From the sequence record LC788708.1: a stretch of DNA of 64,000 nucleotides. One strand, given 5' to 3'. Below the pieces are notes generated by a model. That model worked only from the letters and a program-made list of their open reading frames with translations, made no database searches and was not told where the DNA came from. Origin of the DNA: Escherichia coli phage AZ21. Shown in pieces: positions 12,767 to 40,034 of the stretch. Position 1 is the stretch's first letter; the number at the start of each line of letters is the position of its first letter. Made by a program: the position numbers and the translations under genes.

Positions 12767-12841
12767 ACGGGGTGTAGTCTAAGGGAGAGGCAGGAGTCTT
12801 CTAAATTCCTTTATGCAGGTTCGAATCCTGTCACCTCGGCC
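12767..12841 (+). tRNA. tRNA-Arg (anticodon TCT), CCA encoded
   Basis: Hand-folded cloverleaf: acceptor CGGGGTG/CACCTCG, anticodon loop CTTCTAA, T-arm GCAGG-TTCGAAT-CCTGT. Confidence 0.8.
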
Positions 12842-12876
12842 AATTTTATTAACTGTAACTAAAACAAAGGAAACAT

Positions 12877-13824: not shown

Positions 13825-13847
13825 TAGTTACACGTAATCTTCGAAAC

Positions 13848-13883
13848 AAGCCCGCGTTTCCTCCGAGAGCGCGGGCTTTTCTG
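13848..13883 (+). terminator. rho-independent terminator
   Basis: 9-bp stem AAGCCCGCG/CGCGGGCTT plus a T-run. Confidence 0.75.
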
Positions 13884-14027
13884 TATTTAAGGCAAAAGAA
13901 AAGCCCATAAGTTATTCAACTAAGGTCTTTAGTACTTAATTCTTTAGAATCATATACTATTATTGCAGCAACAACGTGCTACCACTAAATGCCCTACGAT
14001 TTTCCTCTAAAAAGTTAAAAAATTCGA

Positions 14028-14056
14028 TTGCTTGAATGCTAAATTCTCTGTATAAT
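14028..14056 (+). promoter_or_regulatory. T5 early-type promoter
   Basis: TTGCTT, 17 nt, TATAAT, ATAAATTTGAGAGAGG box. By recall, very close to the classic PN25 sequence. Confidence 0.8.
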
Positions 14057-14086
14057 ATATTTATAAATTTGAGAGAGGAATCAAAT

Positions 14087-14383
14087 ATGAAACGCATTGT
14101 ACTTGCATTGACTCTAGTATCTACTTCTGTATTTGCTGCTCCACAACAGGAACTTTGTCAAGTTCAAGTTTGTAATAAGCTAGAACGATTTACTTTGGAT
14201 ATTTGGTCACACATTAAAGATAATATGGGTGAGCAATGTTTTGATATTGTTCTGCCAAAAGAACAAGCTGTTCCTGGTGCTGTTCTCAGCTCAGAATCAC
14301 GTTGGTGGCAAGGTTCTTCTATCAATCCAACTAAGAAGTCAGTGACACGTATCAAACAAGTGTATCAGTGCAGTGTTCAGTAA
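14087..14383 (+). CDS. secreted Cys-containing protein (98 aa)
   Basis: Signal peptide MKRIVLALTLVSTSVFA. The start was moved from the track's 14036, which lies inside the promoter. Confidence 0.6.
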   Translation: MKRIVLALTLVSTSVFAAPQQELCQVQVCNKLERFTLDIWSHIKDNMGEQCFDIVLPKEQAVPGAVLSSESRWWQGSSINPTKKSVTRIKQVYQCSVQ

Positions 14384-14391
14384 AATTTCAC

Positions 14392-14420
14392 TTGCTTAAT
14401 GCCGAAATTTTCTATATAAT
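14392..14420 (+). promoter_or_regulatory. T5 early-type promoter
   Basis: TTGCTT, 17 nt, TATAAT. Confidence 0.75.
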
Positions 14421-14451
14421 ATATTCTATAAATTATAGATAGGAGTCATAT

Positions 14452-14970
14452 ATGACTGTTGACGAGTTAAAACAACATCTTTTATCTAGGGGCTTTGATA
14501 GTGATAAGTATCACTGTTGGCTCTCTCCACATGGATGGTTAACAGTTCCACTGTATGATTTCTCTGGCATGTTACGTGGATATCAAACATATAACCCTAG
14601 TGCAGCTAAAGGTCATGGAAAATGTCCTTCTGAAGCTAAATATTTTACGCATTCTTCTACTCAATGTCTATGGGGTTTAGAAACTCTTACAGGTAATGAA
14701 GACCTAGTATTAGTTGCAGAATCTGTATTTAAAGCTGTGGCACTACACAACGCGGGATATCCCGCACTAGCAATGCTAGGATCTTCCCCTAGCAAAGCAC
14801 TGCTAAAGCAGCTAAAATTACAACCTTTTAAAGTAGTAGCCGTAGGCGATAATGATTCTGCTGGTGAGAAGTTTGCTAAAAAACTAAATGGGTTTACTTC
14901 CCTCATGGATTTAGATGAAATGAATACAGAAAACTTGAAAAATTTTCTTGCCATGAAGCTAAATTTCTAA
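14452..14970 (+). CDS. Toprim-domain protein
   Basis: LVAESVFKA (Toprim Glu) and VGDNDSAGEKF (DxD) motifs. Confidence 0.6.
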   Translation: MTVDELKQHLLSRGFDSDKYHCWLSPHGWLTVPLYDFSGMLRGYQTYNPSAAKGHGKCPSEAKYFTHSSTQCLWGLETLTGNEDLVLVAESVFKAVALHNAGYPALAMLGSSPSKALLKQLKLQPFKVVAVGDNDSAGEKFAKKLNGFTSLMDLDEMNTENLKNFLAMKLNF

Positions 14971-14976
14971 TATAAT
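14948..14976 (+). promoter_or_regulatory. T5 early-type promoter embedded in the CDS 3' end, driving tRNAs
   Basis: TTGCCA, 17 nt, TATAAT. CATAAATTTGG runs directly into tRNA-Ser. Confidence 0.65.
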
Positions 14977-14990
14977 ATATTCATAAATTT

Positions 14991-15084
14991 GGAAGATTAA
15001 CCCTAAAGGTAAGGGAGCTGTTTGCTAAACAGCCAGTAGCTGTGGAGACACGGTGTGCCAGTTCGAATCTGGCATCTTCCTCCA
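14991..15084 (+). tRNA. tRNA-Ser (anticodon GCT), class II, CCA encoded
   Basis: Acceptor GGAAGAT/ATCTTCC, anticodon arm GCTGT-TTGCTAA-ACAGC, long variable arm, T-loop GTTCGAATC. Confidence 0.85.
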
Positions 15085-15089
15085 AATTT

Positions 15090-15167
15090 GGTTCTCAAGC
15101 TCATTTGGTATGAGCCGTCGCCTCATAAGCGAAAGGTAGGCAGGTTCGAATCCTCCGGGAGCCACCA
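15090..15167 (+). tRNA. tRNA with CAT anticodon (Met or lysidine-Ile), CCA encoded
   Basis: Acceptor GGTTCTC/GGGAGCC (with G-U pairs), anticodon loop CTCATAA, T-loop TTCGAAT. Confidence 0.75.
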
Positions 15168-15186
15168 AATTAAATAAGGACAACTA

Positions 15187-15375
15187 ATGGAATTATTCAT
15201 AGTTTCTATTAAATTTGCACAAGATAGAGAACATTCGGACGAGTTTAAACAAGGGTACAGACTAGTAAAGGCTACATCTGAACTACATGCTATGGACAAA
15301 GTAGTAGACTATATGTATAAAGTAGAAGACGTTTACTACGTCAATGCTTTAGAAGCCTCAAAAGTAATTAACTAG
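15187..15375 (+). CDS. hypothetical protein (62 aa)
   Basis: AAGGA RBS, directly after the tRNA. Confidence 0.5.
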   Translation: MELFIVSIKFAQDREHSDEFKQGYRLVKATSELHAMDKVVDYMYKVEDVYYVNALEASKVIN

Positions 15376-15383
15376 GAGACTAT

Positions 15384-15569
15384 ATGTCCAAATTTCAAGA
15401 ACTCAAGCAAGAGCTAGAAGAGTGTGCCTGCCCAAAATGCTTCGGAGTAGGTGAGTGGAACGATGCTGAACCCGGTGATACACGGTATAATACATACGTT
15501 TGTACATATTGTAATGGTTCTGGTATTAATCCTGAATGTGGTATTTCTCTAGACATTGAGCGAGGTTAA
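15384..15569 (+). CDS. small zinc-ribbon protein (61 aa)
   Basis: CPKCFGVG and CTYCNGSG pairs (DnaJ-type CxxCxGxG). Confidence 0.6.
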   Translation: MSKFQELKQELEECACPKCFGVGEWNDAEPGDTRYNTYVCTYCNGSGINPECGISLDIERG

Positions 15570-15570
15570 G

Positions 15571-15909
15571 ATGGATATTTTTACTACTCCGGCAATAAAC
15601 CTTTTAGGTGTTGGCTTGTTCCAAGCTACGGTGTATCGTACTGATGATTCTACTGATGTGGTAACGTTCATCGTACCTGAGTTCTTCCTAGAAAAGTTCT
15701 TTGAAGAGTTTGAGCAGTTCCGTGAAGAACACAATGCTCATTCCGATATGGAAGATCTAGCAGCTATGTTCCCTGCGGTTTACGGCTATATCTTTGAAGG
15801 TAATGGCCTAGATCTTAATAAATCTGAACTCGTTGAACTTAACTGGGGCATCAATTTTGAAGTTGGCTCTCCATTCCCTCGATATTTCCAGGGTTTAGAG
15901 ATTCGCTAA
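15571..15909 (+). CDS. hypothetical acidic protein (112 aa)
   Basis: ATG 15571 after a GAGG RBS. The track start at 15556 is non-ATG and overlaps the upstream gene. Confidence 0.6.
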   Translation: MDIFTTPAINLLGVGLFQATVYRTDDSTDVVTFIVPEFFLEKFFEEFEQFREEHNAHSDMEDLAAMFPAVYGYIFEGNGLDLNKSELVELNWGINFEVGSPFPRYFQGLEIR

Positions 15910-15917
15910 GATTACAT

Positions 15918-15994
15918 GGGGGTGTAATCGAATTGGCATAGGTACTGGACTTAAAATTCAGGTTTTGTGGGTTCGAATCCCACCACCCCTACCA
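15918..15994 (+). tRNA. tRNA with anticodon TAA (Leu by anticodon) but a short variable arm, CCA encoded
   Basis: Acceptor GGGGGTG/CACCCCT, anticodon arm CTGGA-CTTAAAA-TTCAG, 5-nt variable region, T-arm GTGGG-TTCGAAT-CCCAC, discriminator A. Confidence 0.7.
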
Positions 15995-16009
15995 AATTAA
16001 GGAAATAAA

Positions 16010-16132
16010 ATGAAAGCTATTAAGAAAGCACTGCGTAAATTTATGTATTGTCGTTTTCATAGCATCAAGGCTTCAACTAATGGTACTACTTACGATCGCT
16101 ATGATCCTAAGTTTGGCTTACATTCTAAATAA
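16010..16132 (+). CDS. possible mini-protein (40 aa)
   Basis: ATG after AAGGAAATAAA directly downstream of the tRNA. Below the track cutoff. Confidence 0.35.
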   Translation: MKAIKKALRKFMYCRFHSIKASTNGTTYDRYDPKFGLHSK

Positions 16133-16145
16133 CTGGAGAAAACAA

Positions 16146-16352
16146 ATGGCTAATCCTGAAATTACGGCACAACGCTTTATGCTGAAAGGAATTATTGCTG
16201 AAGCAGGCATGACAGAAGAAGTTGCAGATTTTCAAAAGCAATTCCTCAATATTCTCACTCAAGCCAAAGAGCTAGGAGAGAAAGAACATGGCGCGGCTAT
16301 TATGGCAATCACATTGGTTGGGCTTGATCTGGCTGAAGAATCAGGAGTTTAA
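16146..16352 (+). CDS. hypothetical protein (68 aa)
   Basis: ATG 16146 after a GGAGAAAAC RBS, in frame with track ORF 16080. Confidence 0.55.
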   Translation: MANPEITAQRFMLKGIIAEAGMTEEVADFQKQFLNILTQAKELGEKEHGAAIMAITLVGLDLAEESGV

Positions 16353-16382
16353 CTCCTCCAAGCAGAAATTTTAAAAATGTAC

Positions 16383-16412
16383 TTGCTTTTTGCTTAAGAT
16401 TTCTGCTATAAT
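16383..16412 (+). promoter_or_regulatory. T5 early-type promoter
   Basis: TTGCTT, 18 nt, TATAAT. Confidence 0.65.
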
Positions 16413-16441
16413 AGTTATATAAGTTGATGAGAGGAATCAGA

Positions 16442-16717
16442 ATGTTAAAACGTTTTGCAGCAACTGGTATTGAAAGCTCAGTATGTAAATCCTGGGGTGG
16501 TTGGGAAGGTGAGATCGAGTGGCTTCAGTTCTACAATGTAGAACTTCTTCCAGAGATCAAAGCTCAATGTATTGAGGCTGGTATGGCTCCTGATGCTACG
16601 GCTGATGTTGAAATCAGCATGAATAAGCTAGAGGGTCGAGTAGTCACTGTTACTGATGAAGGTGAAGAGGTATTCGAACTTCCATTCACTTTGAAAGTCA
16701 CTCCTTCATTTGATTAA
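16442..16717 (+). CDS. hypothetical protein (91 aa)
   Basis: ATG after the GAGAGGAATCAGA box. Confidence 0.6.
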   Translation: MLKRFAATGIESSVCKSWGGWEGEIEWLQFYNVELLPEIKAQCIEAGMAPDATADVEISMNKLEGRVVTVTDEGEEVFELPFTLKVTPSFD

Positions 16718-16753
16718 CTGATACAGCACTGAGCAAGTTCTTTAAAATTTGAC

Positions 16754-16782
16754 TTGCTCAGTGCCTTAAAACTTGATATAAT
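16754..16782 (+). promoter_or_regulatory. T5 early-type promoter driving tRNA-Tyr
   Basis: TTGCTC, 17 nt, TATAAT. Confidence 0.65.
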
Positions 16783-16847
16783 ATTTATCTAATTTGGAAA
16801 CATATTTAAAAGTGTTTAAATGAGAATTTTTGAATACTTCTAAATAT

Positions 16848-16935
16848 GGGCGTTTATTCCGTAAGTGGTAGCGGAGGGGATTGTAAATCCCTGGTCATTG
16901 CGACTCGAGTGGTTCGACTCCATTAACGCCCACCA
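16848..16935 (+). tRNA. tRNA-Tyr (anticodon GTA), class II, CCA encoded
   Basis: Acceptor GGGCGTT/AACGCCC, anticodon arm GGGGA-TTGTAAA-TCCCT, long variable arm, T-loop TTCGACT. Confidence 0.85.
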
Positions 16936-16952
16936 AATTAAAGGTAAAGGAT

Positions 16953-17144
16953 ATGTATATTGATCGGATAATTCAAGAAGCTGCAAATAGGGGTATTATA
17001 CAGTTGGGTTCACCCGCTGATATAAATAAAGATCTAATATTAGAAAGCCTCACATTTGGTACAGCTAACTTTGGTCGCGATAGTAATCGTCGATATAGCT
17101 TGAAGTTATCTGCACTATCTTTTATCAAGTATAACAAATTATAG
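16953..17144 (+). CDS. hypothetical protein (63 aa)
   Basis: AAAGGTAAAGGA RBS. Lies between two tRNAs. Confidence 0.5.
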   Translation: MYIDRIIQEAANRGIIQLGSPADINKDLILESLTFGTANFGRDSNRRYSLKLSALSFIKYNKL

Positions 17145-17218
17145 TTAGTTGGCAGAGTGGTTATGCACCTCCTTCATACGGAGCGACTACAGTGGTTCAA
17201 CTCCACTACTAACTACCA
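17143..17218 (+). tRNA. second tRNA with CAT anticodon (Met/fMet/Ile2), CCA encoded
   Basis: Acceptor AGTTAGT/ACTAACT, anticodon loop TTCATAC, T-arm AGTGG-TTCAACT-CCACT. Confidence 0.75.
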
Positions 17219-29765: not shown

Positions 29766-30007
29766 TGATGTTTATTCTAGCGTTTTATCTAATTGTGGTT
29801 GGTGTACTGGTTACTAAATATCACACATGGACGCCAAAGAATGTTGTTAAGGTAGCCTTATTTGTTATTCCAGTTCCACTTATTATCTTTTCTATGTTAC
29901 TAGTGATGTTAGTTGGTAAAGTAACAAAAACCGATATTAAACGAATTGCGGATGAATTGCAACAGTCTTGTGATATGGTAGAGGATATTCTTAAAGATGA
30001 AGCTTAA
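29762..30007 (+). CDS. 2-TM membrane protein (81 aa)
   Basis: ATGA coupling. Confidence 0.6.
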   Translation: MMMFILAFYLIVVGVLVTKYHTWTPKNVVKVALFVIPVPLIIFSMLLVMLVGKVTKTDIKRIADELQQSCDMVEDILKDEA

Positions 30008-30323
30008 TTTTAATGAATTAAATACCTTACATGAGATATTACAGTTTGTGAATAACAATATTAGTATTCCGGACGATACACTAGAAGTTCTCAGGATAAT
30101 TGAGAAAAAGGTAGGAATTGAAATTGAGGACTCTTGGAAACCACTTTCTGTATTAACACCACTTAATATGAAAGTGATAGTTAAAAATATCAATACTGGT
30201 GAAGAGTGTGAAATGATTCGTAAAGAACTAGCTGATAGCTATTCACCAAAGTCTGTAGTAATGTACCATGATGATACTGCTAAGACTCTACAGACAGCTA
30301 ATTACGTATGGCGTCTCCCATGA
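29997..30323 (+). CDS. hypothetical protein (108 aa)
   Basis: Start overlaps the upstream gene's end. Confidence 0.6.
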   Translation: MKLNFNELNTLHEILQFVNNNISIPDDTLEVLRIIEKKVGIEIEDSWKPLSVLTPLNMKVIVKNINTGEECEMIRKELADSYSPKSVVMYHDDTAKTLQTANYVWRLP

Positions 30324-30466
30324 TTGATTTAGTACCAATTACTGCTGGGCTAATAGCACTATTAGTGCTTGCAGTTTTTATTATTGTGGAGCAGGCCAAA
30401 GTAATAAGGAGACTTAAAAACAATGATAAAACGTCTTGTTTATCAGGCACCAAAGATTGTAACTGA
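30320..30466 (+). CDS. possible 48-aa single-TM peptide
   Basis: ATGA coupling. ITAGLIALLVLAVFIIV helix. Below the track cutoff. Confidence 0.4.
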   Translation: MIDLVPITAGLIALLVLAVFIIVEQAKVIRRLKNNDKTSCLSGTKDCN

Positions 30467-30623
30467 GTATTTTGTATTACTGCCTCAGATTGTATTTCTA
30501 ACAGCATTATTTAATATACTTTTTCGGCATCTAGGAATAACGGAAAATATCTTCTACACTTCTGAACTACTTCCTTTTATGTACGAAGGCATCATCGTGG
30601 CAATTAACGGAGTTCGTAAATGA
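30423..30623 (+). CDS. small membrane protein (66 aa)
   Basis: AAGGAG RBS. Confidence 0.55.
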   Translation: MIKRLVYQAPKIVTEYFVLLPQIVFLTALFNILFRHLGITENIFYTSELLPFMYEGIIVAINGVRK

Positions 30624-31081
30624 CAGCACTACAACAACTACAGAATTACTGGTTTGATAACCAATTTAACGATCTCTTCATCCAGTTGTTTGTCGAAACG
30701 AACGGACGCTTCAACTACCGATTCTTTAATAAGTTTCACGAAACAAAATTCTCGCATACAGAAATTAATGCAGCGATCCAAGACCTAACTGGTTCTAAAG
30801 TAATTCAGTATCGTGAAGTAGACTTTACACCAGATTGTTTTGGGTTTGAATTGTTTAAGAAAGCATATAAATTTGGTAAGTTTGAGGATGCTCGTCAATG
30901 GGTTCATGATTTCTGGTACAACACTGATATTGTTCCTAGTCGTGTGCTGATTCTTAACTGGATTGCTAAACAACATCCACCTAAAGCTCAATCGTCCTTC
31001 TTACCAACTGACACAGGAAACCTTTACCATGACAGAAAAGAAAAATCCATTGCTGGAGCAGATGAAGGAATGGGAGAGTAA
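30620..31081 (+). CDS. hypothetical protein (153 aa)
   Basis: ATGA coupling. Confidence 0.65.
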   Translation: MTALQQLQNYWFDNQFNDLFIQLFVETNGRFNYRFFNKFHETKFSHTEINAAIQDLTGSKVIQYREVDFTPDCFGFELFKKAYKFGKFEDARQWVHDFWYNTDIVPSRVLILNWIAKQHPPKAQSSFLPTDTGNLYHDRKEKSIAGADEGMGE

Positions 31082-31400
31082 TATTGAATCTGGTCTGGTA
31101 GACGGAGAAGATATTGTTAACTCTATGCTAGAAGTAACAATAGATAATATAAATCCTATTTTGGCCAGTGAAACCTCAGATCTTATAGGACTTTCTAGTA
31201 CTTTCGATTCTTTGGCTAAATTAGCCTTAGATGACAAAGAGATAACCAAAGAAGATCTCGCCTCAGCTATGAATATGGCTATTAACGCTTACATTGGCAA
31301 ACGTACCGATGAACTCGACAAACAAATCAAAAAGCGTGATACAACACTAAATCTTATGGAAACGGCCACTATTTTAAGAAGTGGTAAACAACTTCATTAA
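31029..31400 (+). CDS. hypothetical acidic protein (about 123 aa; start uncertain)
   Basis: ATG 31029 after AGGAAA. An alternative ATG lies at 31062. Confidence 0.55.
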   Translation: MTEKKNPLLEQMKEWESNIESGLVDGEDIVNSMLEVTIDNINPILASETSDLIGLSSTFDSLAKLALDDKEITKEDLASAMNMAINAYIGKRTDELDKQIKKRDTTLNLMETATILRSGKQLH

Positions 31401-31454
31401 TTCTAGAGGCCGGGACTTGATTGTTCTGGCCTTTTGTGTTTCAAGGAATATAAT

Positions 31455-31652
31455 ATGAAAGCACTAGATAATTACTTAAAGGCTAAATATAGTCCTATAG
31501 AAGATCAATCTGCTGTAACTTGTGAAATAAGTCGAAATAATACAGTACGATTAGCTCAAAAAGGCGGAGGAACATCTGCTAATATTATTTGGCTATCCGA
31601 AGAACAAGCAAAAGACTTGTACCATAAACTAGACAAGTTATTTAATAAGTAG
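31455..31652 (+). CDS. hypothetical protein (65 aa)
   Basis: ATG after AAGGAATATA. Confidence 0.5.
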   Translation: MKALDNYLKAKYSPIEDQSAVTCEISRNNTVRLAQKGGGTSANIIWLSEEQAKDLYHKLDKLFNK

Positions 31653-31653
31653 T

Positions 31654-32094
31654 ATGAGAGAAAAAGTAAATGAATTACTAATCGAGGAAGCTAACAACTT
31701 TCCAATAAATAGGTTTGTCAAATCTGATGGATCTATTAATAGAACTAAGATTAAGCAGCTACATCCCGACTTTCAACAAGAAGCACTAAACCTTATATTT
31801 ATCAAGAAAGCTGTTGCAGTTCATGGGGCTTTCTTTGGGTATGAGCGTGTAAATTACAAAACAATGCAACAGCAAGTCGAGATCTACTGTCCAGATCATG
31901 AAGGGTATTATTGGCAAACTGCTAGATCTCATTTAGAAGGGCATGGTTGTCGACTGTGTGCACACAAGGTTGTGCAGCGTGTCACGGATTATGGAACTTA
32001 TACCGTACCAGCATGTTATCATAAATTTGTAGTTGACGATAATCATATAGTTTGGTATAATAAGTTTTCAAAGTTAAGAATGGAGATAAAATAA
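31654..32094 (+). CDS. hypothetical Cys/His-containing protein (146 aa)
   Basis: CPDHEG...HGCRLCAH suggests a zinc-binding site. Confidence 0.6.
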   Translation: MREKVNELLIEEANNFPINRFVKSDGSINRTKIKQLHPDFQQEALNLIFIKKAVAVHGAFFGYERVNYKTMQQQVEIYCPDHEGYYWQTARSHLEGHGCRLCAHKVVQRVTDYGTYTVPACYHKFVVDDNHIVWYNKFSKLRMEIK

Positions 32095-32279
32095 TGGAAA
32101 CTCTTTTTCTTTTAATGCTCGTAGGTTCTCTGTTACTAATACTAGCACTTCTACTAATCTGCAATATTCTTAACAACAAGAATCTAGAGCTAAAGTGTGA
32201 GAACCAAATCCTTAATCGTGAACTTAAACAATATAACATCGCAGCCCATAAACTGTTAGACAAACTGGAGAATAAATAA
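32094..32279 (+). CDS. single-TM coiled-coil protein (61 aa)
   Basis: TAATG coupling. Confidence 0.55.
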   Translation: METLFLLMLVGSLLLILALLLICNILNNKNLELKCENQILNRELKQYNIAAHKLLDKLENK

Positions 32280-32884
32280 TGACTTTTAATACACAACAAT
32301 CTATTCAAGTAGTGCCAGATCATGAACTGAACACATGGGATTATAGCTTTAAAGATTTAACTGCTACTATACAATTTAAATCTATGAAGCTAACATTTGC
32401 ACACACTGATCTTAGAGCCTGTAAAGATCTTGAGGATAAGCTCGAAGATGCTCGTAAGATTTTTGGCAAGGCTCGCATCCCGGCTGATAATCTAATTAAC
32501 GCATTAATCGATGTAGGATACAAACTCGTGAAGACTGAGGTGAACCGCCCTAGTACTCCAGTGACTGTTAGAGATCCGTGGCAGCCAGGGACAATCTCAA
32601 TGCTAAATAAATCATCGGATATACACAATGTTCCATGCGGTGGTGTGGTAAGTAGTACGCAGTCATACAAGTTTGGTGAAGATTACGGCCCTTCTGTGCA
32701 GTTGAAACATACTCAAGAAGCTTTTGAATCTGATATGCGAAGCGTAGCACCTGTGGATGCTGGAGTTTCTAGGAGTTCTGTTTGTACTATTCATTTTAAT
32801 AATCCTAGTAAACATGGAAGTTTAGAGGATGCTATCCTTGAAGCGTTGGGAGCTGCTATTAATGAAGATAAAAGAGGTAGTTAA
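32279..32884 (+). CDS. hypothetical protein (201 aa)
   Basis: TAATG coupling. Confidence 0.65.
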   Translation: MTFNTQQSIQVVPDHELNTWDYSFKDLTATIQFKSMKLTFAHTDLRACKDLEDKLEDARKIFGKARIPADNLINALIDVGYKLVKTEVNRPSTPVTVRDPWQPGTISMLNKSSDIHNVPCGGVVSSTQSYKFGEDYGPSVQLKHTQEAFESDMRSVAPVDAGVSRSSVCTIHFNNPSKHGSLEDAILEALGAAINEDKRGS

Positions 32885-33774
32885 TGGGATTTTATAGTAA
32901 TAGAAAACCAAAAGGTGTAACTGGTAAATTCGCAGTTGAAGAAAGACCTTTTCCACCGGTCGATGTAGAGAAACTACGTGAACTTCTAGAAATGCTAGAA
33001 GGTTGCCATGAACGTTGTTATTCTGAACTCTCTTTAAATGAGAAACGTGTTGTTGAGATGTTCTGTATTCGTTCAGCTAGAACAGCTAAAGGTACTTCTC
33101 CAAAAGATGAAGTAAAAGAGTACAGAGTTCTAGTGATGCATGCTTGGGCACAACGTTTTGCAGTTCATTCGCTTCAGGAATGGTTTAATCTTCCAGCCTA
33201 TAAAGATTTTCATGTTTACGAAGATGAGGTTATGAATTATAATGAGTTGTATGGTTTGTCCTTCAAAAAGACAGGCTCACCGATGCATGATGCACTCAAT
33301 TCATTCCCTGATCATTACCTTCCAGTTCGTGAATATAGAGATCGTGAAGGAAATAAACCCTGCTTCACTATTTGGAATAAGTCTAAGACGATATCTGATC
33401 TAGATAATTATTGGTTTCGCACAAAAGAAGGATTCCTAGGAACAGAACCTTTACCTAAGGATCTCAAACCTATCCTTCCGCCTGCGAAACCTAAACATGA
33501 AGTAACGATTGCTATTAATAGAATAATTCTAGGAGCAGATGATCTTACTAAACAAATCGCCGCAGTTATCGCAGTTCTGTTTGACGGTACAAATTCTTCT
33601 GCACGTTATGAGAAGCTAACGGATAACAAATTGCAGATACCTAACGAGTTGTATGAGAGTTCGTGCAAGATCTATGATAACTTTAGTAAAGTAGATTACC
33701 CCGTGAGATCCATTAAAGAACTCATGGAGTATGCGGAGATGGGGATGAAAGGAAATCTCATGTTCGATGAATAA
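32884..33774 (+). CDS. hypothetical protein (296 aa), last gene of the early arm
   Basis: TAATG coupling. Long clean ORF. Confidence 0.7.
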   Translation: MGFYSNRKPKGVTGKFAVEERPFPPVDVEKLRELLEMLEGCHERCYSELSLNEKRVVEMFCIRSARTAKGTSPKDEVKEYRVLVMHAWAQRFAVHSLQEWFNLPAYKDFHVYEDEVMNYNELYGLSFKKTGSPMHDALNSFPDHYLPVREYRDREGNKPCFTIWNKSKTISDLDNYWFRTKEGFLGTEPLPKDLKPILPPAKPKHEVTIAINRIILGADDLTKQIAAVIAVLFDGTNSSARYEKLTDNKLQIPNELYESSCKIYDNFSKVDYPVRSIKELMEYAEMGMKGNLMFDE

Positions 33775-33781
33775 ACTCTAC

Positions 33782-33810
33782 TTGACGTTATGATTTCTGC
33801 ATGTTATAAT
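33782..33810 (+). promoter_or_regulatory. near-consensus sigma70 promoter reading into an ORF-free region
   Basis: TTGACG, 17 nt, TATAAT. Confidence 0.65.
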
Positions 33811-33817
33811 AACTCTA

Positions 33818-33990
33818 TGAAATAACATAGAATAAAGAGATCCACCCGGATACGGATGGTGGATGGGAAACTTCTATTTCCCCCGTAGCTTGTCGGAGGG
33901 CTAGGGAAATCTTAAGAAGTTTTGTACCATCTCACGCAATTCGTATCCCAGGGGTGGAGCATCTCTTCCAATCTTTGGGGATCTTATACT
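33818..33990 (+). ncRNA. candidate promoter-driven structured transcript
   Basis: No ORF. Local hairpins CTATG-aaataa-CATAG, TCCACC..GGTGGA and GGGAAA..TTTCCC. Long-range pairing CCACCCGGATACG / CGTATCCCAGGGGTGG. Confidence 0.3.
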
Positions 33991-34138
33991 TAAATTAAAG
34001 GTAAAACTTTTGGTCACATAATTTACATTCAAGATGATACACTGGTTGCCGCCATTCTTCCTAGGATGGCACAACACTTTCTTCTAGACTCCTAAGTTTC
34101 TAGGAATACTAACTCTAGAGTTTACACTAAACTTTGAA

Positions 34139-34876
34139 TCGGATTCGCACATGCTCTAGGGCAGTTTTTCATCTACTATAAATATCCTAGGCCGGTTTTC
34201 CTATACAGGGCGGTTATGGGGAGGGCGGTTATTTCTAGACAATAAAATTTACTCTTGTCAGTCCAGAAATTACTGTCGGATTTGCACATTGTGTTTCTAG
34301 AAATTTATGGTCGGATTTGCACAATTGCCTAAGTTTTTAGGAACATATAATCTCCTGAAAATGGCAGCATTATTTCGGGCCGAAGGCCCATGATTGCCTG
34401 AGTTTTTTTAGAGACACAGAAATTTTCACTTGTCAAGCTATTTTGCCCCATTTTGCTAATAAAATTTTACTTTATCTCCCCTAATCTCAAATTAACCCAA
34501 ATCTTCTCAACTCTTCTCCAAAATCCCCGCAAATCAGGTGCTCCGCACCAAACATGCGCCCCTCCCGTAGTTCCCCCAAGTTTCTCTCGATCTCTCAACT
34601 TCTCCCCAAACTCATACAATCACACACCCTCCAATCGAAGTCACAAAAATCTTGTCGGATTCGCACAAATAAACCCATGTCGGATTTGCACATATTCTAG
34701 TTAATTCCACAGGATTGATGCGCAGCATCGGATTGCTGGAGTTTTTGGGAGAATTCATTGTCGGATTCGCACACTATAAAAATTTTTCGGGTCGGATTTG
34801 CACACTACCAAAAATTGTCGGATTCGCACATACACGCCCACGCGTAATCCATGGGGGCAAATGTCGGATTTGCACA
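34139..34876 (+). repeat. array of nine direct 14-bp iterons GTCGGATT(T/C)GCACA
   Basis: Copies start at 34139 (lacks the first G), 34275, 34310, 34654, 34679, 34760, 34791, 34817 and 34863. All share one orientation. Confidence 0.9.
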
Positions 34877-34881
34877 AAAGC

Positions 34882-34899
34882 GCAGGGCAATTGCCCTGC
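34882..34899. repeat. perfect 18-bp palindrome GCAGGGCAATTGCCCTGC
   Basis: Read directly from the sequence. Confidence 0.9.
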
Positions 34900-34904
34900 T
34901 TGCC

Positions 34905-35100
34905 TGAATGCGAATGATAATGAGAATCATTTGCATTTAAAAAGCGGAATGAGAATGATAATAATTCGCATTTAAGAATGGAAGTGAGAATTATTCAGGA
35001 AGTGAAACGATTCTCATTTAAAAAGTGAAACGATTCTCATTTAGAAAGTGAAACGCGAATGATAATGATTCGTATTTAAGAATGGAAGTGAGAAACACTA
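34905..35100. promoter_or_regulatory. cluster of Fur-box-like imperfect palindromes and short tandem repeats
   Basis: 19-mers at 34916-34934 and 34951-34969 match GATAATGATAATCATTATC at 16/19 and 15/19 by hand. A 23-bp unit AGTGAAACGATTCTCATTTAAAA is tandem at 35001 and 35024. A ~40-bp direct repeat lies at 34947-34990 and 35054-35094. Confidence 0.6.
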
Positions 35101-35281
35101 TTATTTAAGTTATCCACAGACTTATCAACAGCACGATTTGACTTGACAGAATCCTAGCCATTTTGAGGCGTTATCAACAGACTTATCAACAGCTTATCCT
35201 ACTGTATAAATATACAGTATTCCTATGCAGTGAATAATTCTAATATACAGCTAAAACGCTCTCAAACGCATTCTAACGCGT
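35086..35281. repeat. left arm of a ~200-bp imperfect inverted repeat carrying DnaA-type boxes
   Basis: TTATCCACA at 35110. TTATCAACA at 35122, 35171 and 35183. Aligns with the reverse complement of 39128-39330. Confidence 0.85.
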
Positions 35282-35413
35282 TTAATTTTGGTGGGGATAC
35301 TAAAACAAGGGCAAAATTGGAGGAGGCTTGAAAATTAGTTAGCTCGCTAATGATCACACACGGCGACACGTAACACCCTAACCATTAGCAGGCTAACCAT
35401 CGCGGGCGTGGTC

Positions 35414-35434
35414 AAATGAGAATGATTCTCATTT
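35414..35434. repeat. perfect 21-bp palindrome AAATGAGAAT-G-ATTCTCATTT (Fur-box-like core)
   Basis: Read directly. The TGAGAATGATTCTCA core differs from TGATAATNATTATCA at one symmetric position pair. Confidence 0.85.
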
Positions 35435-35475
35435 GTGGATTGGGGGCGCTTCCTGATAGTTGCGCCCCGTGATTA

Positions 35476-35589
35476 TTATAGTAGGGGGCAACCGTTACGC
35501 TTTGCCCACTCCCGCCACTCATCTTGGTGCCTAGACTTGCGACGGCGTACTAAAAACCGCTTGTACCAGTGATTAAACCATCGTTTCAT
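35476..35589 (-). CDS. possible 37-aa basic Trp-rich peptide, last gene of the leftward cassette
   Basis: ATGA overlap with the upstream gene's stop. MKRWFNHWYKRFLVRRRK... Below the track cutoff. Confidence 0.35.
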   Translation of the reverse strand: MKRWFNHWYKRFLVRRRKSRHQDEWREWAKRNGCPLL

Positions 35590-35789
35590 AAATCCTCCTC
35601 CGGTAGTCGATGCGTGATCTTTTCCTCCTCCCCATAGGAATCCACCAAATACTGATAATAACCATCGTGATCATAAATCACTTTATCATATTCCCCACGC
35701 TCGACCGCTTGCCGATTTTCCAACGTATCAGGCACAAAGAAAGTATCAACGGTAACAGTAGTTTTAGTTACAACAATTTTATCACTCAT
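35586..35789 (-). CDS. pre-early-region hypothetical protein (67 aa)
   Basis: Co-directional cassette. AGGGG RBS region. Confidence 0.55.
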   Translation of the reverse strand: MSDKIVVTKTTVTVDTFFVPDTLENRQAVERGEYDKVIYDHDGYYQYLVDSYGEEEKITHRLPEEDL

Positions 35790-35809
35790 AATGCCATCGC
35801 CCCTAGAAT

Positions 35810-35828
35810 GAGAATGATTATCAATATC
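35810..35828. promoter_or_regulatory. Fur-box-like 19-mer GAGAATGATTATCAATATC
   Basis: 16/19 to the Fur consensus by hand. Lies in the intergenic gap of the leftward cassette. Confidence 0.45.
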
Positions 35829-35915
35829 ATTGTGAAGCCATTACCAAATCGTAAACGCTGGGAATGTTTCCCAGCGGTATTATTAGACTTATGGCTTTGT
35901 GTTTTTCGCCACCAG

Positions 35916-36116
35916 CTATTCACGGTAGACGCTCCATCCGTCTAGCTTCCATTCTTCCCCCTTGCGAATATTGAAAAACCAATCATTAAAATTGTAACCA
36001 TCTTCTGACATGATCACGCCGTTTTCTTTCATGTACAAAAATTCATCACTAGTAAAATATTGATTACTAACTTTAAAACCTTGTTTCATTTTTTCTAGTG
36101 CTTCATCTTTAGTCAT
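35916..36116 (-). CDS. small protein (66 aa) with DUF2829/Tad2-like N-terminal pattern (tentative)
   Basis: MTKDEALEKMKQGFKV... and a Trp-rich C-terminal part. ATGA coupling to the upstream gene. Confidence 0.55.
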   Translation of the reverse strand: MTKDEALEKMKQGFKVSNQYFTSDEFLYMKENGVIMSEDGYNFNDWFFNIRKGEEWKLDGWSVYRE

Positions 36117-36457
36117 TGCGCCACCTTTCGAAACGCTGTTTCAATACTATCCGCAGTGGATTGAATATATGCGCCTTTGAGTATCAGCCGCTCGGTGCAT
36201 ATCTTGCGAAAAATATTAATAAAATCGTCCTCATTTTCTGCGATTAATGCCTCACCCATAACCTGAACGTCGCAAGATGCAAAGGTCAAAAATTGAAACG
36301 CTAGTTCACGGGCAACGACCGCATTGATTTTATAATGCGCCTTGCCTTCATAGATATTAATAACGCCCTTATAAGCTGGCGAAAGCTGATTTAAGTAGTT
36401 TGCTAATAATGCCGGACGGCAATTAGCAACAAAACGATTGCCCTCATAAATAACCAT
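36113..36457 (-). CDS. hypothetical protein (114 aa)
   Basis: Co-directional cassette. Confidence 0.6.
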   Translation of the reverse strand: MVIYEGNRFVANCRPALLANYLNQLSPAYKGVINIYEGKAHYKINAVVARELAFQFLTFASCDVQVMGEALIAENEDDFINIFRKICTERLILKGAYIQSTADSIETAFRKVAQ

Positions 36458-36584
36458 TTGATAGTCTCCCGATTAGATAGCCAGATAATAACATAAAGAT
36501 CCCCAATAAAAGAGGATCATTCTTAAATAAGGTGGCGGTAAAACCGCCAACCATTGCAAGGAGAATAACAATAATGCTTTTCAT
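36444..36584 (-). CDS. possible 46-aa 2-TM peptide
   Basis: ATGA overlap with the upstream stop. MKSIIVILLAMVGGFTATLF...LLLGIFMLLSGYLIG. Below the track cutoff. Confidence 0.45.
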   Translation of the reverse strand: MKSIIVILLAMVGGFTATLFKNDPLLLGIFMLLSGYLIGRLSNGYL

Positions 36585-36793
36585 AGTACCCCACGAAACG
36601 CAGCGTAAAAGGTGGCAAAGTGTTTAACTGTTTCAGCAATCACGTTGCCGCGCTTATCAAATTTCTTTTCTGTAACACGAAAGGCATTTTTATTACGTGC
36701 TACATATTCGATTTTACAATCTTCCCGCTCGAACGTGTTAACATCCACCAGCTTAAAGCCTTTCGAACGTGCAAGAGAAACGTTGCGGATCAT
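36581..36793 (-). CDS. hypothetical basic protein (70 aa)
   Basis: AGGGGA RBS. Confidence 0.55.
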   Translation of the reverse strand: MIRNVSLARSKGFKLVDVNTFEREDCKIEYVARNKNAFRVTEKKFDKRGNVIAETVKHFATFYAAFRGVL

Positions 36794-36795
36794 TT

Positions 36796-36978
36796 TTATT
36801 CCCCTTTACTAGTCATGCAGCCCAGCAGATAAGAAAATACAGCGATGCCAGCACCAATAGTAACCATTGGTTTTATATTTACTAAACCGCAATAGGAATC
36901 CTGAATACCATAAGCGGTGGCGAAAAGAGTCAAAATAGCGCCCAAGATACCCGCTAAAATAGCTCGAAAAATAACCAT
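36796..36978 (-). CDS. 2-TM membrane protein (60 aa)
   Basis: GAGGAG RBS. Two hydrophobic helices. Confidence 0.55.
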   Translation of the reverse strand: MVIFRAILAGILGAILTLFATAYGIQDSYCGLVNIKPMVTIGAGIAVFSYLLGCMTSKGE

Positions 36979-37027
36979 TTGTAATACTCCTCTAGTTAGT
37001 GGGGCGAAAGTAACGCCCCGTTATTAA

Positions 37028-37258
37028 TTACATTAAAATAATTTTTGCCGCTTGTTTTTTGGTACAGTGTTCCGCTTTCAGGGTGTCCAGCAAAAAGCCC
37101 GCCGTTTGCTGATCGATTTTATCGGCATTATATAGTTCTTGGATGGTGTTATAAGTTTTAGCAATGCCGTATTCTTGTACCATTTCTTGAATAATCCAGC
37201 GATTTGATACCCAGCCTTTACCAGTGAAAAGAGCGTCAGAAGAAGAGTAAGCAACCAT
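37028..37258 (-). CDS. hypothetical protein (76 aa)
   Basis: ATG 37258 after a GGAGG RBS. The track start at 37291 lacks an RBS. Confidence 0.55.
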   Translation of the reverse strand: MVAYSSSDALFTGKGWVSNRWIIQEMVQEYGIAKTYNTIQELYNADKIDQQTAGFLLDTLKAEHCTKKQAAKIILM

Positions 37259-37321
37259 TTTAAGCCTCCAAATTTTTGGGAAAATTTTCAACCGTCCTCA
37301 AACGGTGTAAAGGCATTATAA

Positions 37322-37348
37322 CAAAAAAGGCCGCCATAAAAGGCGACC
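37322..37348 (-). terminator. rho-independent terminator (minus strand)
   Basis: GGTCGCC-ttttat-GGCGGCC followed by TTTTTT on the minus strand. Confidence 0.65.
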
Positions 37349-37364
37349 TTTACAAAACTTTACA

Positions 37365-37859
37365 TTAAACTACTTGTAAGGATTCAATATTGAAACATCG
37401 TTTCAGTTCGTCATGCAAAACGGCATATTCATCCCATCGGGTACTATCAGGAATATAAACAAGCTGTTTTAATCGGTTTGCATATATTACCGCTTTGTTA
37501 TCAATTATCTCGACGCCACCATATTTAATAATTAATTTCATGACGGAATTAATAGGATCGCCGCCGTTTACATATGCGCCGGATTTACTTAATTGATAAT
37601 GATAAAGGCTTGCATATACGTTTTCATTTTCATACCATTCGCCAGTCTCTTCGTCTTCATAGCCATCGCTACCAAAACGAGAAGCATTATCAACAGCCAT
37701 TTCATGAGCAAAAGCGTCCAGATCCGTACCAGCAGGAACAAAATATTCCTCGGTATTCCCTTCCCCGCAATAGCCAGTATGACAATCGACTAAAATGATC
37801 ATATCATGTTTAGCCTTGCTCACTTCCCCTAGCGAGAAGCCGTATTTTTCTTCTAACAT
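37365..37859 (-). CDS. hypothetical acidic protein (164 aa)
   Basis: ATG 37859 after AGGAGACTAATT. Confidence 0.65.
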   Translation of the reverse strand: MLEEKYGFSLGEVSKAKHDMIILVDCHTGYCGEGNTEEYFVPAGTDLDAFAHEMAVDNASRFGSDGYEDEETGEWYENENVYASLYHYQLSKSGAYVNGGDPINSVMKLIIKYGGVEIIDNKAVIYANRLKQLVYIPDSTRWDEYAVLHDELKRCFNIESLQVV

Positions 37860-37923
37860 AATTAGTCTCCTATTAATTAACAAGGAAATAGTAAAGCGGG
37901 GAAATAATCCCCGCTAGATATTA

Positions 37924-38157
37924 TTACTCGTTTTCGGTGTTAGTGGTAAAAGTAGAGATATCGATACCTTTTACCATTTCATCGATCATCTCAGCGATGT
38001 TAAAACTTTGCACCATTTCTAACATTGCCGCTTCCATAGCCGCCCCTGCTACCGCTTTCGCTTTCTGATTAGTCGGGGCGTACTGGTCAACCGCTACACT
38101 CAGCAGGTTAGCGATCACTACACGACCAATCGGCGTATCAATATAGCCTTTGATCAT
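37924..38157 (-). CDS. 77-aa ORF, probably the C-terminal part of the upstream gene
   Basis: Open in the +1 frame relative to 38138-38929. No RBS of its own. Confidence 0.5.
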   Translation of the reverse strand: MIKGYIDTPIGRVVIANLLSVAVDQYAPTNQKAKAVAGAAMEAAMLEMVQSFNIAEMIDEMVKGIDISTFTTNTENE

Positions 38158-38929
38158 AAACGGTGCTTTTTTTAGCCGCTACTTTCGTGATTTGAGTTAG
38201 TGCAATTTTACCAGCTTCCAGTTTTGCAGCGTTTACAACAGCGGATTTATTAGCGGCAACGATATTAGCGATCTTGGTCATGGTATTTTTTCCTTTGTTT
38301 TCAGTAGTTTGAGTATTAACGCTTTGAGTGTTAGAGCTTACAACCTGTTTTTCAATATTGTCAACTGGTTTTAGTGTAAATCCAGCATTTGCAACGTTTG
38401 ATTCATTCCCATACTCTAAATAATCACTAGGGATCAACATGTTGCCACTAGCGCGTTCAAAACATAACACGCCAGTTGTAGAAATTACATTACTATCAGC
38501 ACTTTTGTAATTAGCTGATAGTTCACGCCAAATGCTAGTTAATAACGATCCGACACTATCAGTCCTGATATTACTTACTTTTGTTGCTGTTACTTGCTCT
38601 TTTTCTTGCACGTTATATAATCGCGCAATGTAACCACTATTAGATTCACTATAACCAACAATGATAAAATCAATATCTCTTCCACGTTGATTGCGGAAAA
38701 TGTGATAATCACGGTTGAAAATTACTAGCGCCCTTTTCTGGTCTAGTAATTGTGTGAAATCTTCAACTGAATAATGAGTACCCTCATCGTCTAAAATTCT
38801 ATCATGAATCTTTTCGATAATAGTAGCGGTATGCTGTACGCTTGCCGCGCTACTACCCTCTAACAGATTGCGCAAACTGCCTTTAATAATAGTGGCGTTT
38901 GCTGGTACTGCAATTCTTACAGTAGACAT
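38138..38929 (-). CDS. first gene of the leftward cassette (263 aa as written)
   Basis: GGGAG RBS. Ends 27 nt after an A7 run at 38167-38173. Confidence 0.65.
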   Translation of the reverse strand: MSTVRIAVPANATIIKGSLRNLLEGSSAASVQHTATIIEKIHDRILDDEGTHYSVEDFTQLLDQKRALVIFNRDYHIFRNQRGRDIDFIIVGYSESNSGYIARLYNVQEKEQVTATKVSNIRTDSVGSLLTSIWRELSANYKSADSNVISTTGVLCFERASGNMLIPSDYLEYGNESNVANAGFTLKPVDNIEKQVVSSNTQSVNTQTTENKGKNTMTKIANIVAANKSAVVNAAKLEAGKIALTQITKVAAKKSTVYDQRLY

Positions 38930-38961
38930 TTTATTTTGTCTCCCTCGTTAATCGGTGAGTG

Positions 38962-38991
38962 AATGATAAGGGTAATTTTCTAGCATAGGCA
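38962..38991 (-). promoter_or_regulatory. candidate promoter of the leftward cassette
   Basis: On the minus strand: A-tract, TTGCCT, 18 nt, TATCAT. Confidence 0.4.
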
Positions 38992-39127
38992 AATATTATT
39001 TTACTTTTTTATTTTCCTTGCCTAGCGTCTAATTTTATGCTAACCGCGCAGCGGTGCAATAAAGAGCAAACCACGGCGAAGCCACCAGCCCGACGCATTG
39101 AGGCTTTACTTTAATATTACCTTACAG

Positions 39128-39330
39128 CGTTTAGCTCGTTAGAATGCGTTTTGGGCCACTTAAAATTGATTGCAGTTGTTAACACTACCTTTCTACCCTG
39201 TATATTTATACAGTGGAATAACCTGTGGATAAGTCTGTGCAAAAGTCCTTATATCACCGCCTATCGTGTCAAGTTATTTTGTGCTGTGGAAAACATTGTG
39301 GATAACTTAAATGATAGTGCTTCTCACTTA
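39128..39330. repeat. right arm of the ~200-bp imperfect inverted repeat with DnaA-type boxes
   Basis: TGTGGATAA at 39224 and 39297. TGTGGAAAA at 39285. The shared core CTGTATAAATATACAG is also present. Confidence 0.85.
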
Positions 39331-39554
39331 GGCTAATGATTTCTTATAGTTATTATTTCTCATTAATTTATAAGTATATTATATATTATCAAATAGTTAG
39401 TTGGCTAATGAGATTTTCCGTGATTAATAGTCTGCTAATAATTCAGGTCGTTACAATCCACCAGCATGATTATCATTCTAGCAATTATTAGTCTGCTATC
39501 TTTCCGATACATACTAACAAATAAAAGTCAATTAATTTATTTCATAAAATAAGT

Positions 39555-39591
39555 AGTTATCCACTGGAAAATAAAAGTCAAGTGGATAACT
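39555..39591. repeat. palindrome of two inverted DnaA-like boxes
   Basis: AGTTATCCACT - 15 nt - AGTGGATAACT. A further TTATCAACA lies at 39624. Confidence 0.8.
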
Positions 39592-40034
39592 AGGAAAATT
39601 TCATTTTTGCTTTTGGGGATAAGTTATCAACAAGGCTAGAATGCGCCTAAAACGCTCCAGAACGCGATGAAGTTTTTAGCCACCCCATCATAAGGGGATA
39701 GGCCGTTTATCGCTGCCACGAGCTTTTTAGATTTTGTCAAGTAGGGGAAAGCAAATATAAATGAAAAAATTACTTGCCTATTTGCTTTATTTTGTGGTAT
39801 TCGCGCCCGTTTCTTTTAATTTTAGGCCGTCGCCGGACGTGGTGCGGTGAATTTTGTCTTTACGTTTCTTTACAAAAATAAGGTTGCGCCATTTTCGGGA
39901 ATCCCCTATTATTTATCACGTAGGGCGGCAATGACGAACTACACGGCGGGAAGTTTACCGCCACGCTCTTTAAAAATTGGGTACATCTTAAAGCCTATCG
40001 GCGGTAAACTTATTTATTATAAGGAATCGACGAT

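Follow-up and report, generated by a model that had tools for sequence, protein, structure and literature searches.

Several bacteriophages encode small stable RNAs with promoters of their own, among them the OOP RNA of lambda, the sar RNA of P22 and the species 1 and 2 RNAs of T4, which are short, intergenic, non-coding transcripts made by host polymerase and bounded by hairpins. Two further RNAs with long hairpins are relevant here: 6S RNA, which mimics an open promoter and sequesters sigma-70 polymerase, and the cabRNA of staphylococcal phages, a long hairpin RNA that is reportedly sensed by a CBASS cyclase. Here we describe an element of comparable build in the genome of the T5-like Escherichia coli phage AZ21 (LC788708.1), of which a stretch of 64,000 nucleotides (hereafter the window) was analyzed. 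The element consists of a sigma-70 promoter directly downstream of a T5.018 homologue and, on the strand that this promoter would transcribe, a long imperfect hairpin. We favor, with moderate confidence, the reading that it is a gene for a structured non-coding RNA, transcribed independently and kept at this position among T5-like phages. Like the lambda, P22 and T4 RNAs it would be a short intergenic transcript with its own promoter; unlike them it has as its body a 54-bp rod in which the sequence is replaced from one relative to another, it shares no sequence or Rfam relationship with them, and no better-than-chance complementarity to an antisense target was found in the 64-kb window.

The original prediction, which was made from the letters of the window, had placed a near-consensus promoter (TTGACG-17-TATAAT) directly after the last early gene and facing DNA without a credible open reading frame (ORF), and both statements were borne out. 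The gene in question is ORF 32884-33774 (plus strand), a homologue of T5.018 (phrog_8583) that borders the left terminal repeat, as T5.018 does in T5 records; the -35 box lies 8 nt after its stop codon, with no terminator in the gap. On the plus strand the ORF list holds none of at least 30 amino acids between 33774 and 34453, and in the record of E. coli phage AZ23, which is 100% identical over window bases 33500-35600, the next annotated gene lies at 35586-35789 on the minus strand. The promoter matches the sigma-70 hexamer consensus at 11 of 12 positions and additionally has the TG of an extended -10 element and a 17-nt spacer; the pattern TTGAC-N15-TGNTATAAT occurs twice in the window and in none of 100 dinucleotide-preserving shuffles. 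A promoter occupies the same spot in each of the 31 distinct homologous loci examined, that of Klebsiella phage Sugarland included. Across the 15 promoter variants found in these loci the -35 element is TTGACA, TTGACG or TTGCAT and the -10 element TATAAT or TATCAT, with a 17-18 nt spacing and the TGT constant while the spacer sequences diverge, a comparison which indicates that the promoter elements are under selection. The text of the T5 promoter study neither mentions T5.018 nor lists this site. The other exact TTGAC-N15-TGnTATAAT promoter in the window (32033-32061, plus strand) lies within the 3' end of ORF 31654-32094, just 5' of ORFs beginning at 32094 and 32279.

From the geometry of this promoter, transcription is predicted to start at 33817, which corresponds to about 10844 on the complement strand of T5 (NC_005859), and the first 174 nt of the predicted RNA (33817-33990) fold at -66.4 kcal/mol compared with -47.0 +/- 4.2 kcal/mol for shuffles (z = -4.66; 0 of 200 shuffles as stable), with z = -4.7 to -6.1 across folding tests. 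The high self-complementarity that had been claimed for the first ~170 nt was thereby confirmed, whereas the drawing of several separate stems was not: the minimum-energy fold is a single long hairpin. The long-range helix proposed between 33842-33854 and 33942-33957 exists, but as a segment of one continuous 54-bp hairpin (33835-33967) and not as a helix enclosing others. The TCCACC/GGTGGA stem likewise forms when the 5' half is folded alone, but in the full fold its sequences pair with the 3' arm, and the GGGAAA/TTTCCC hairpin, although readable in the sequence, is absent from the 5'-half fold and also gives way to pairing with the 3' arm. The CTATG/CATAG stem overlaps the predicted start at 33817 and is therefore perhaps only partly transcribed. 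The G-run motif downstream forms only a weak 4-bp hairpin in the sequence type of this window (type A). A minus-strand terminator-like call at 33842-33859 in the consensus scan is a piece of the left arm of the long hairpin and not a separate feature. The features of the unit are collected in the table, in which the short 5' hairpin, the long hairpin and the hairpin of the G-run motif in relatives are denoted H1, H2 and H3.

Features of the putative transcription unit in the window (H1-H3, hairpins as defined in the text)
Feature	Position	Strand	Description
Sigma-70 promoter	33782-33810	+	-35 TTGACG (33782-33787); 17-nt spacer; extended -10 TGtTATAAT (33802-33810), with TG at 33802-33803 and TATAAT at 33805-33810
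Short 5' hairpin position (CTATG/CATAG)	33814-33830	+	Counterpart of H1; uncertain in type A
Predicted transcription start	33817	+	A, 7 nt past the -10 hexamer; from promoter geometry only
Long imperfect hairpin H2	33835-33967	+	54 bp, -63.3 kcal/mol; apex near 33892-33897
G-run motif CCAATCTTTGGGGATCTT after H2	33968-33985	+	Counterpart of H3 / GGGGG(A/U) of relatives
A/U-rich spacer	33986-34044	+	Carries the 13-mer TTCAAGATGATAC (34028-34040)
Terminator-like hairpin	34045-34086	+	12-bp stem (34045-34075), then ACTTTCTTCTA; likely RNA 3' end

The same plan recurs in relatives of which the sequences can barely be aligned. We distinguished at least seven sequence types, all with a short 5' hairpin (5-9 bp at the H1 position in the relatives checked), a long hairpin of 110-150 nt and a GGGGG-containing motif, and plus-strand z-scores ranged from -3.1 to -7.4 in 11 representatives of these types. 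The 200-nt stretch past the promoter in type A was found in 41 phage records at 95-100% identity. T5 itself has an unrelated-looking sequence in its place (type B, 141 records), and the 5' leader shared by types C-F was found in 316 records from all hosts, including 59 Klebsiella phages. Combined, these groups are in rough agreement with the 441 records that have the adjacent conserved block. Klebsiella phage Sugarland, which belongs to a different genus, has the promoter, an AUAGAUU leader, both hairpins and GGGGGAUCU, and it was recovered at E = 6e-4 by a covariance model of types C-F made without it.

Compensatory changes in homologues had been set beforehand as the test of the helices, and such changes were found in type B, in types C-F and in pairwise alignments. 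Ten distinct type B sequences retained pairing at 99.0% over 72 pairs, compared with 34-43% when the partners were slid; both partners had changed in three pairs, and in four more a change of one partner was compatible with G·U pairing. In the model alignment of types C-F and Sugarland, both partners had changed in 8 of 24 pairs, of which five belong to the short 5' hairpin, where five of the seven pairs covary. Most slid partners in the corresponding controls gave 0-1 double changes, although a slide of +3 gave 4, and at most 1 of 500 shuffles reached the observed 8.

The folds also distinguish between the two strands. Among the 11 representatives the plus-strand folds contain 52 G·U pairs, with no A·C among the 12 single mismatches, and the plus strand was more stable than the minus strand in 11 of 11, a bias which disfavors a double-stranded cruciform. 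The favored strand is the one that the promoter transcribes. Taken together, a fold more stable than shuffles, compensatory substitutions, selection on one strand and the lack of a conserved ORF are the features by which a structured non-coding RNA is recognized in sequence comparisons, and all four are found at this locus.

The 3' end of the unit is probably marked by a second hairpin. The plus strand of 34045-34086 folds at -16.5 kcal/mol (z -2.95) compared with a z-score of +0.2 for the minus strand, and the substitutions noted there, G-C to G·U and U-A to U·G, retain pairing on the plus strand only. Of the 12 T5-like representatives listed, 11 share a hairpin at 34045-34075 with ACUUUCUUCU after it; BSP22A is the exception. 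Additionally, phages of the HdH2 type have a canonical terminator directly after the long hairpin (12-pair stem, -17 kcal/mol, then UUUCUUU), a stem which is the counterpart of the G-run motif and which the HdH2 record itself annotates as a terminator, and in Sugarland a canonical terminator lies 5' of the promoter and a further hairpin at about +195 to +230. A discrete RNA of ~165-270 nt is the most economical reading of these signals, and the small structured RNA that had been listed among the possible roles of the locus is thus supported by promoter conservation, compensatory changes, the G·U/A·C strand asymmetry and terminator-like hairpins that would bound such a product. A stem-loop called by TransTerm in AKFV33 was considered as a terminator for type A and rejected, being annotated elsewhere. 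The 13-mer TTCAAGATGATAC of the A/U-rich spacer was found in every T5-like locus compared, despite variable sequence on both sides.

Several observations weigh against this reading or limit its reach. The alignment of types C-F and Sugarland was fitted to the structure, and for this reason sequence-only pairwise alignments were also made; in these DT57C and L028 differ by 9 compensated, 7 one-sided but kept and 4 broken pairs, EscoHU1 and BB1 by 6-7 compensated, 3-6 one-sided kept and 4-13 broken, and T5 and L012 by 3 compensated, 2 one-sided kept and 1 broken. Many of the sequences in the covariation counts are closely related, and type A is too invariant for covariation of its own. Types A and B are not found by the C-F covariance model, and their unity with C-F consequently rests on position, architecture and flanking motifs; a single covariance model for all types, which would have to find A and B as well as Sugarland, was rejected. 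The strand asymmetry fits displaced non-template DNA as well as RNA, because the two have identical sequence. Furthermore, the 34045-34086 hairpin has a bulged stem and an imperfect U-tract and was not called by the consensus terminator scan, and type A has no canonical intrinsic terminator in the first 224 nt (to 34040, short of that hairpin), so that read-through into the iterons downstream is possible. Finally, where the RNA starts and ends and when it is expressed are predictions.

If the element is nevertheless a gene for a structured RNA, its expression may be pictured as follows. Host sigma-70 RNA polymerase would initiate near 33817 at the near-consensus extended -10 promoter, which, being located just beyond the injection-stop region, should be among the first DNA inside the cell once second-step transfer resumes. 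The transcript would fold, above a conserved foot, into a single long imperfect hairpin (33835-33967) with the G-run after it, and would most likely end at the hairpin and U-tract of 34045-34086 to give an RNA of ~270 nt; in some relatives the stronger terminator straight after the long hairpin would give an RNA of ~165 nt. Such an RNA could be made as soon as the DNA enters and would need no translation. The sequence of the stem varies freely with pairing kept, and sequence conservation is confined to the 5' leader, the stem foot and the GGGGG motif, which suggests that the RNA acts by its shape and not by base-pairing to a target. We infer from this freedom that the most likely mode is the binding or titration of a protein that reads a double-stranded RNA rod, either a host factor of the RNase III type or one encoded by the phage; our confidence in any particular partner is much lower than in the RNA gene itself. 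The gene upstream of the promoter belongs to at least three unrelated families among relatives, one of them a T5orf172/MUG113 endonuclease, and a dedicated partner protein encoded next door is therefore unlikely.

The staphylococcal cabRNA resembles the T5-like element in being a long, largely double-stranded phage hairpin that is read by a protein through its shape and not its sequence, as we propose for the T5-like RNA. It differs in that its source is a coding region and that it triggers immunity, whereas the T5-like RNA would be the product of a dedicated, promoter-driven unit, which the lineage keeps and which thus implies a benefit to the phage. The likeness to 6S RNA lies in a long imperfect hairpin of ~180 nt and in the reliance of T5-like phages on sigma-70 polymerase throughout infection; the T5-like helix, however, is nearly continuous with small loops only and lacks the large central bubble, and no Rfam match to the 6S family was obtained at E up to 1 in the window or in six relatives. 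A more specific version of these ideas seems doubtful to us, namely that the RNA is the first product of the second-step-transfer DNA and a shape-specific switch or decoy, or that the hairpin is extruded in cis at the concatemer junction. As a decoy, the rod might titrate a host or pre-early phage protein and so promote the switch from pre-early to early expression, or it might blunt an RNA-sensing defense, in which case the hypervariable stem would record an arms race. In the cis version, transcription would extrude a single-strand hairpin near the concatemer junction for the duplication and cutting of the 10-kb terminal repeat.

The DNA into which the promoter points has several features that bear on alternatives to an RNA gene. 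Over window bases 33500-35600 many Tequintavirus and Epseptimavirus genomes are 84-92% identical, and window 33977-35311 corresponds to T5 10659-9316 at 87.6% identity, with the T5 minus strand equivalent to the plus strand of the window. The non-coding DNA downstream of the T5.018 homologue is the 'repeat region 3' of T5, which contains the injection stop signal. The inner boundary of the terminal repeat maps to 34411 from the independently annotated repeats of T5, SIY1lw and EscoHU1, which puts the element in unique DNA ~600 bp outside the repeat and pointing to it, with 594 bp between the predicted start and the boundary. The iterons named in the original prediction are confirmed as nine copies of TCGGATTYGCACA at 34139-34864 (the 'DRD' of T5), all on the plus strand. 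Three of them (34139, 34276 and 34311) lie outside the terminal repeat. The boundary itself falls within ...GAGTTTTTTTAGAGACACAG..., which in a concatemer would be the cut site of the right genome end. A single consensus DnaA box, TTATCCACA, lies at 35110. Eight CTAG tetranucleotides are clustered in ~240 bp (34061-34297), mostly in CCTAGG- or TCTAGA-like palindromes, against a window mean of ~4.5 per kb, and this cluster could represent candidate protein-binding sites near the repeat boundary.

This geometry is the basis of an alternative that we regard as unlikely, a cis-acting transcription unit in which the promoter would serve to send RNA polymerase, an R-loop or a displaced strand into the sequence just outside the terminal repeat. 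In such a unit the hairpin might be a 5' leader, a site for RNase III, or a put-like antiterminator or extruded single-strand hairpin, and the purpose would be to process or duplicate the 10-kb repeat at the concatemer junction, to activate an origin-like region or to clear proteins bound at the injection stop. T7 needs the promoter phiOR near its concatemer junction, where a hairpin intermediate has been reported, and the junction signals of that phage comprise phiOR / pacB. The likeness is one of geometry only: an exact direct terminal repeat, with a promoter and an inverted repeat lying a few hundred bp from its boundary and transcription toward the junction; T7 uses its own polymerase and a 160-bp repeat, and the T5-like locus has terminator-like hairpins between promoter and junction. 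The put RNA of HK022 consists of promoter-proximal stem-loops that make RNA polymerase terminator-resistant and is similar in that a structured RNA directly follows a strong early promoter, with hairpin and terminator signals beyond. Put, however, comprises two short stem-loops in ~70 nt ahead of the genes whose transcription it extends, while the T5-like element has one ~130-nt hairpin and no same-strand genes for kilobases. Promoter-driven transcripts are also used at the T4 and T7 origins and, as RNA II, in ColE1, and the iterons and DnaA box invite a comparison with these, although here hairpin/U-tract signals intervene. For a cis-acting unit speak also the description of the region as oriC-like by Davison, the orientation of the promoter, which is aimed at the repeat boundary and along the inferred direction of packaging (the left end being ejected first), the lack of an early canonical terminator in type A and the equal compatibility of the G·U asymmetry with a displaced non-template strand. 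On the other side, the HdH2 terminator, the 34045-34086 hairpin and the Sugarland hairpin all precede the first iteron, and ~55 pairs of a specific long helix plus the 5' hairpin are selected, which is more than a mere leader needs; moreover, the replication origins of T5 were mapped near the genome center (Davison review). The earlier suggestion of a transcription-driven device acting on the iterons is right about the iterons and weakened by the signals that lie before them.

The remaining alternatives are less probable still. It is improbable that the inverted repeat acts at the DNA level by forming a cruciform or a single-stranded DNA hairpin, for instance for replication, recombination, nicking or recognition by terminase, with the promoter incidental. 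Both strands do fold significantly (minus strand z -4.2 to -5), the surrounding region is dense in repeats and palindromes, and the nicked strand of T5 is the plus strand of the window according to the complement-strand nick feature in NC_005859; a cruciform, however, needs both arms on both strands, which is at odds with the strand bias described above, the promoter elements are selected across their variants, and the nearest mapped major nick is ~1 kb away. Slightly less credible is a device at the end of the early operon, that is, a 3' stabilizer or insulator that blocks read-through into the repeat, where it would run antisense to the pre-early genes. A very stable 3' hairpin shields mRNA from exonucleases, and the short, terminator-free gap between the stop codon and the -35 box means that operon read-through would contain the hairpin, but the conserved consensus promoter between gene and hairpin in every relative examined would be left unexplained, the gene upstream is not of one family, and the canonical terminator that precedes the promoter in Sugarland insulates the unit from the operon. 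We give hardly any credence to a neutral palindrome or miniature mobile element beside a chance promoter: while the 200-nt module is exchanged between types like a cassette and homing-endonuclease genes adjoin it in some relatives, the window contains one copy of it with no significant repeat at any other place, 5,426 E. coli genomes yielded no match to it, its position and architecture are constant in essentially all T5-like records, and its helices covary. Nothing supports the notion of a decoy promoter that sequesters RNA polymerase, which would also leave the selection on the transcribed helices unexplained.

Searches for a known identity of the proposed RNA gene gave no match. None of the Rfam 15 covariance models matched the element in window 30000-40000, and six relatives that represent other types gave no match either at E up to 1. 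A mobile or repetitive element of the miniature inverted-repeat transposable element (MITE) or enterobacterial repetitive intergenic consensus (ERIC) type was rejected on the copy number and genome matches given above. A small peptide was likewise rejected, since the mini-ORFs (ATG-AAA-TAA in this type, AUGAAAUGG... in others) are not always present and vary in frame and length from one type to the next, as was the minus-strand ORF 33901-34077, which is not conserved because its sequence is replaced between types. A helix closing the 5' and 3' ends, between the leader and the AUAAUUUACAUUC / AUAUCUGUGUUC block, was also considered; the pairing is possible, but the types of leader and block do not covary. 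Nothing is annotated between the last iteron and ORF018 in three T5 records, the words 'promoter', 'hairpin' and 'transcription' are absent from the text of the Davison 2020 analysis of the region, and RNA-seq of Bas33 was published per gene only. The sequences of the element are not printed in the literature searched, which did not extend to older subscription literature, so that an earlier description is possible. The element is best classified as a new and so far unannotated family of structured phage RNAs that is conserved in T5-like phages and Sugarlandvirus.

The variation around the element is mosaic. Ten type A loci show isolated changes only in the stretch from promoter to H2 (33775-33965), and SIY1lw differs from the window by a single substitution in it while the adjacent gene is 92-96% identical, which suggests that the element is more tightly constrained than coding sequence. 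The T5.018-type gene and the RNA module move as a block, with 92-100% identity between genera over window 32900-33990 compared with SIY1lw; in the flanks of this block identity falls to 30-85%. A T5orf172/MUG113 (GIY-YIG-like) homing-endonuclease gene lies directly 5' of the promoter in DT57C (888-1244), Lindwurm (1067-1423) and EscoHU1 (478-1206, all in locus coordinates), and such neighbors may help to explain the regional mosaic. Elsewhere in the window, six tRNA genes (Arg, Ser, Met, Leu, Tyr, Met) are clustered at 12768-17218 on the plus strand.

T5 is a classic model phage in which the pause and resumption of DNA transfer, the handover from pre-early to early expression and the regeneration of the 10-kb repeat are poorly understood, and the non-coding 1.7 kb next to the repeat has so far been viewed purely as DNA repeats. 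The element described here would be a candidate RNA family missed by annotation pipelines and by Rfam, and a structured RNA in ~440 sequenced relatives and another genus would offer a small, defined target where genetics has had few handles. Should the decoy or the cis version prove true, it would add a new and testable player to the two-step injection and repeat biology of T5, and an RNA that acts in two-step injection, program switching or terminal-repeat processing would be considerably more interesting.
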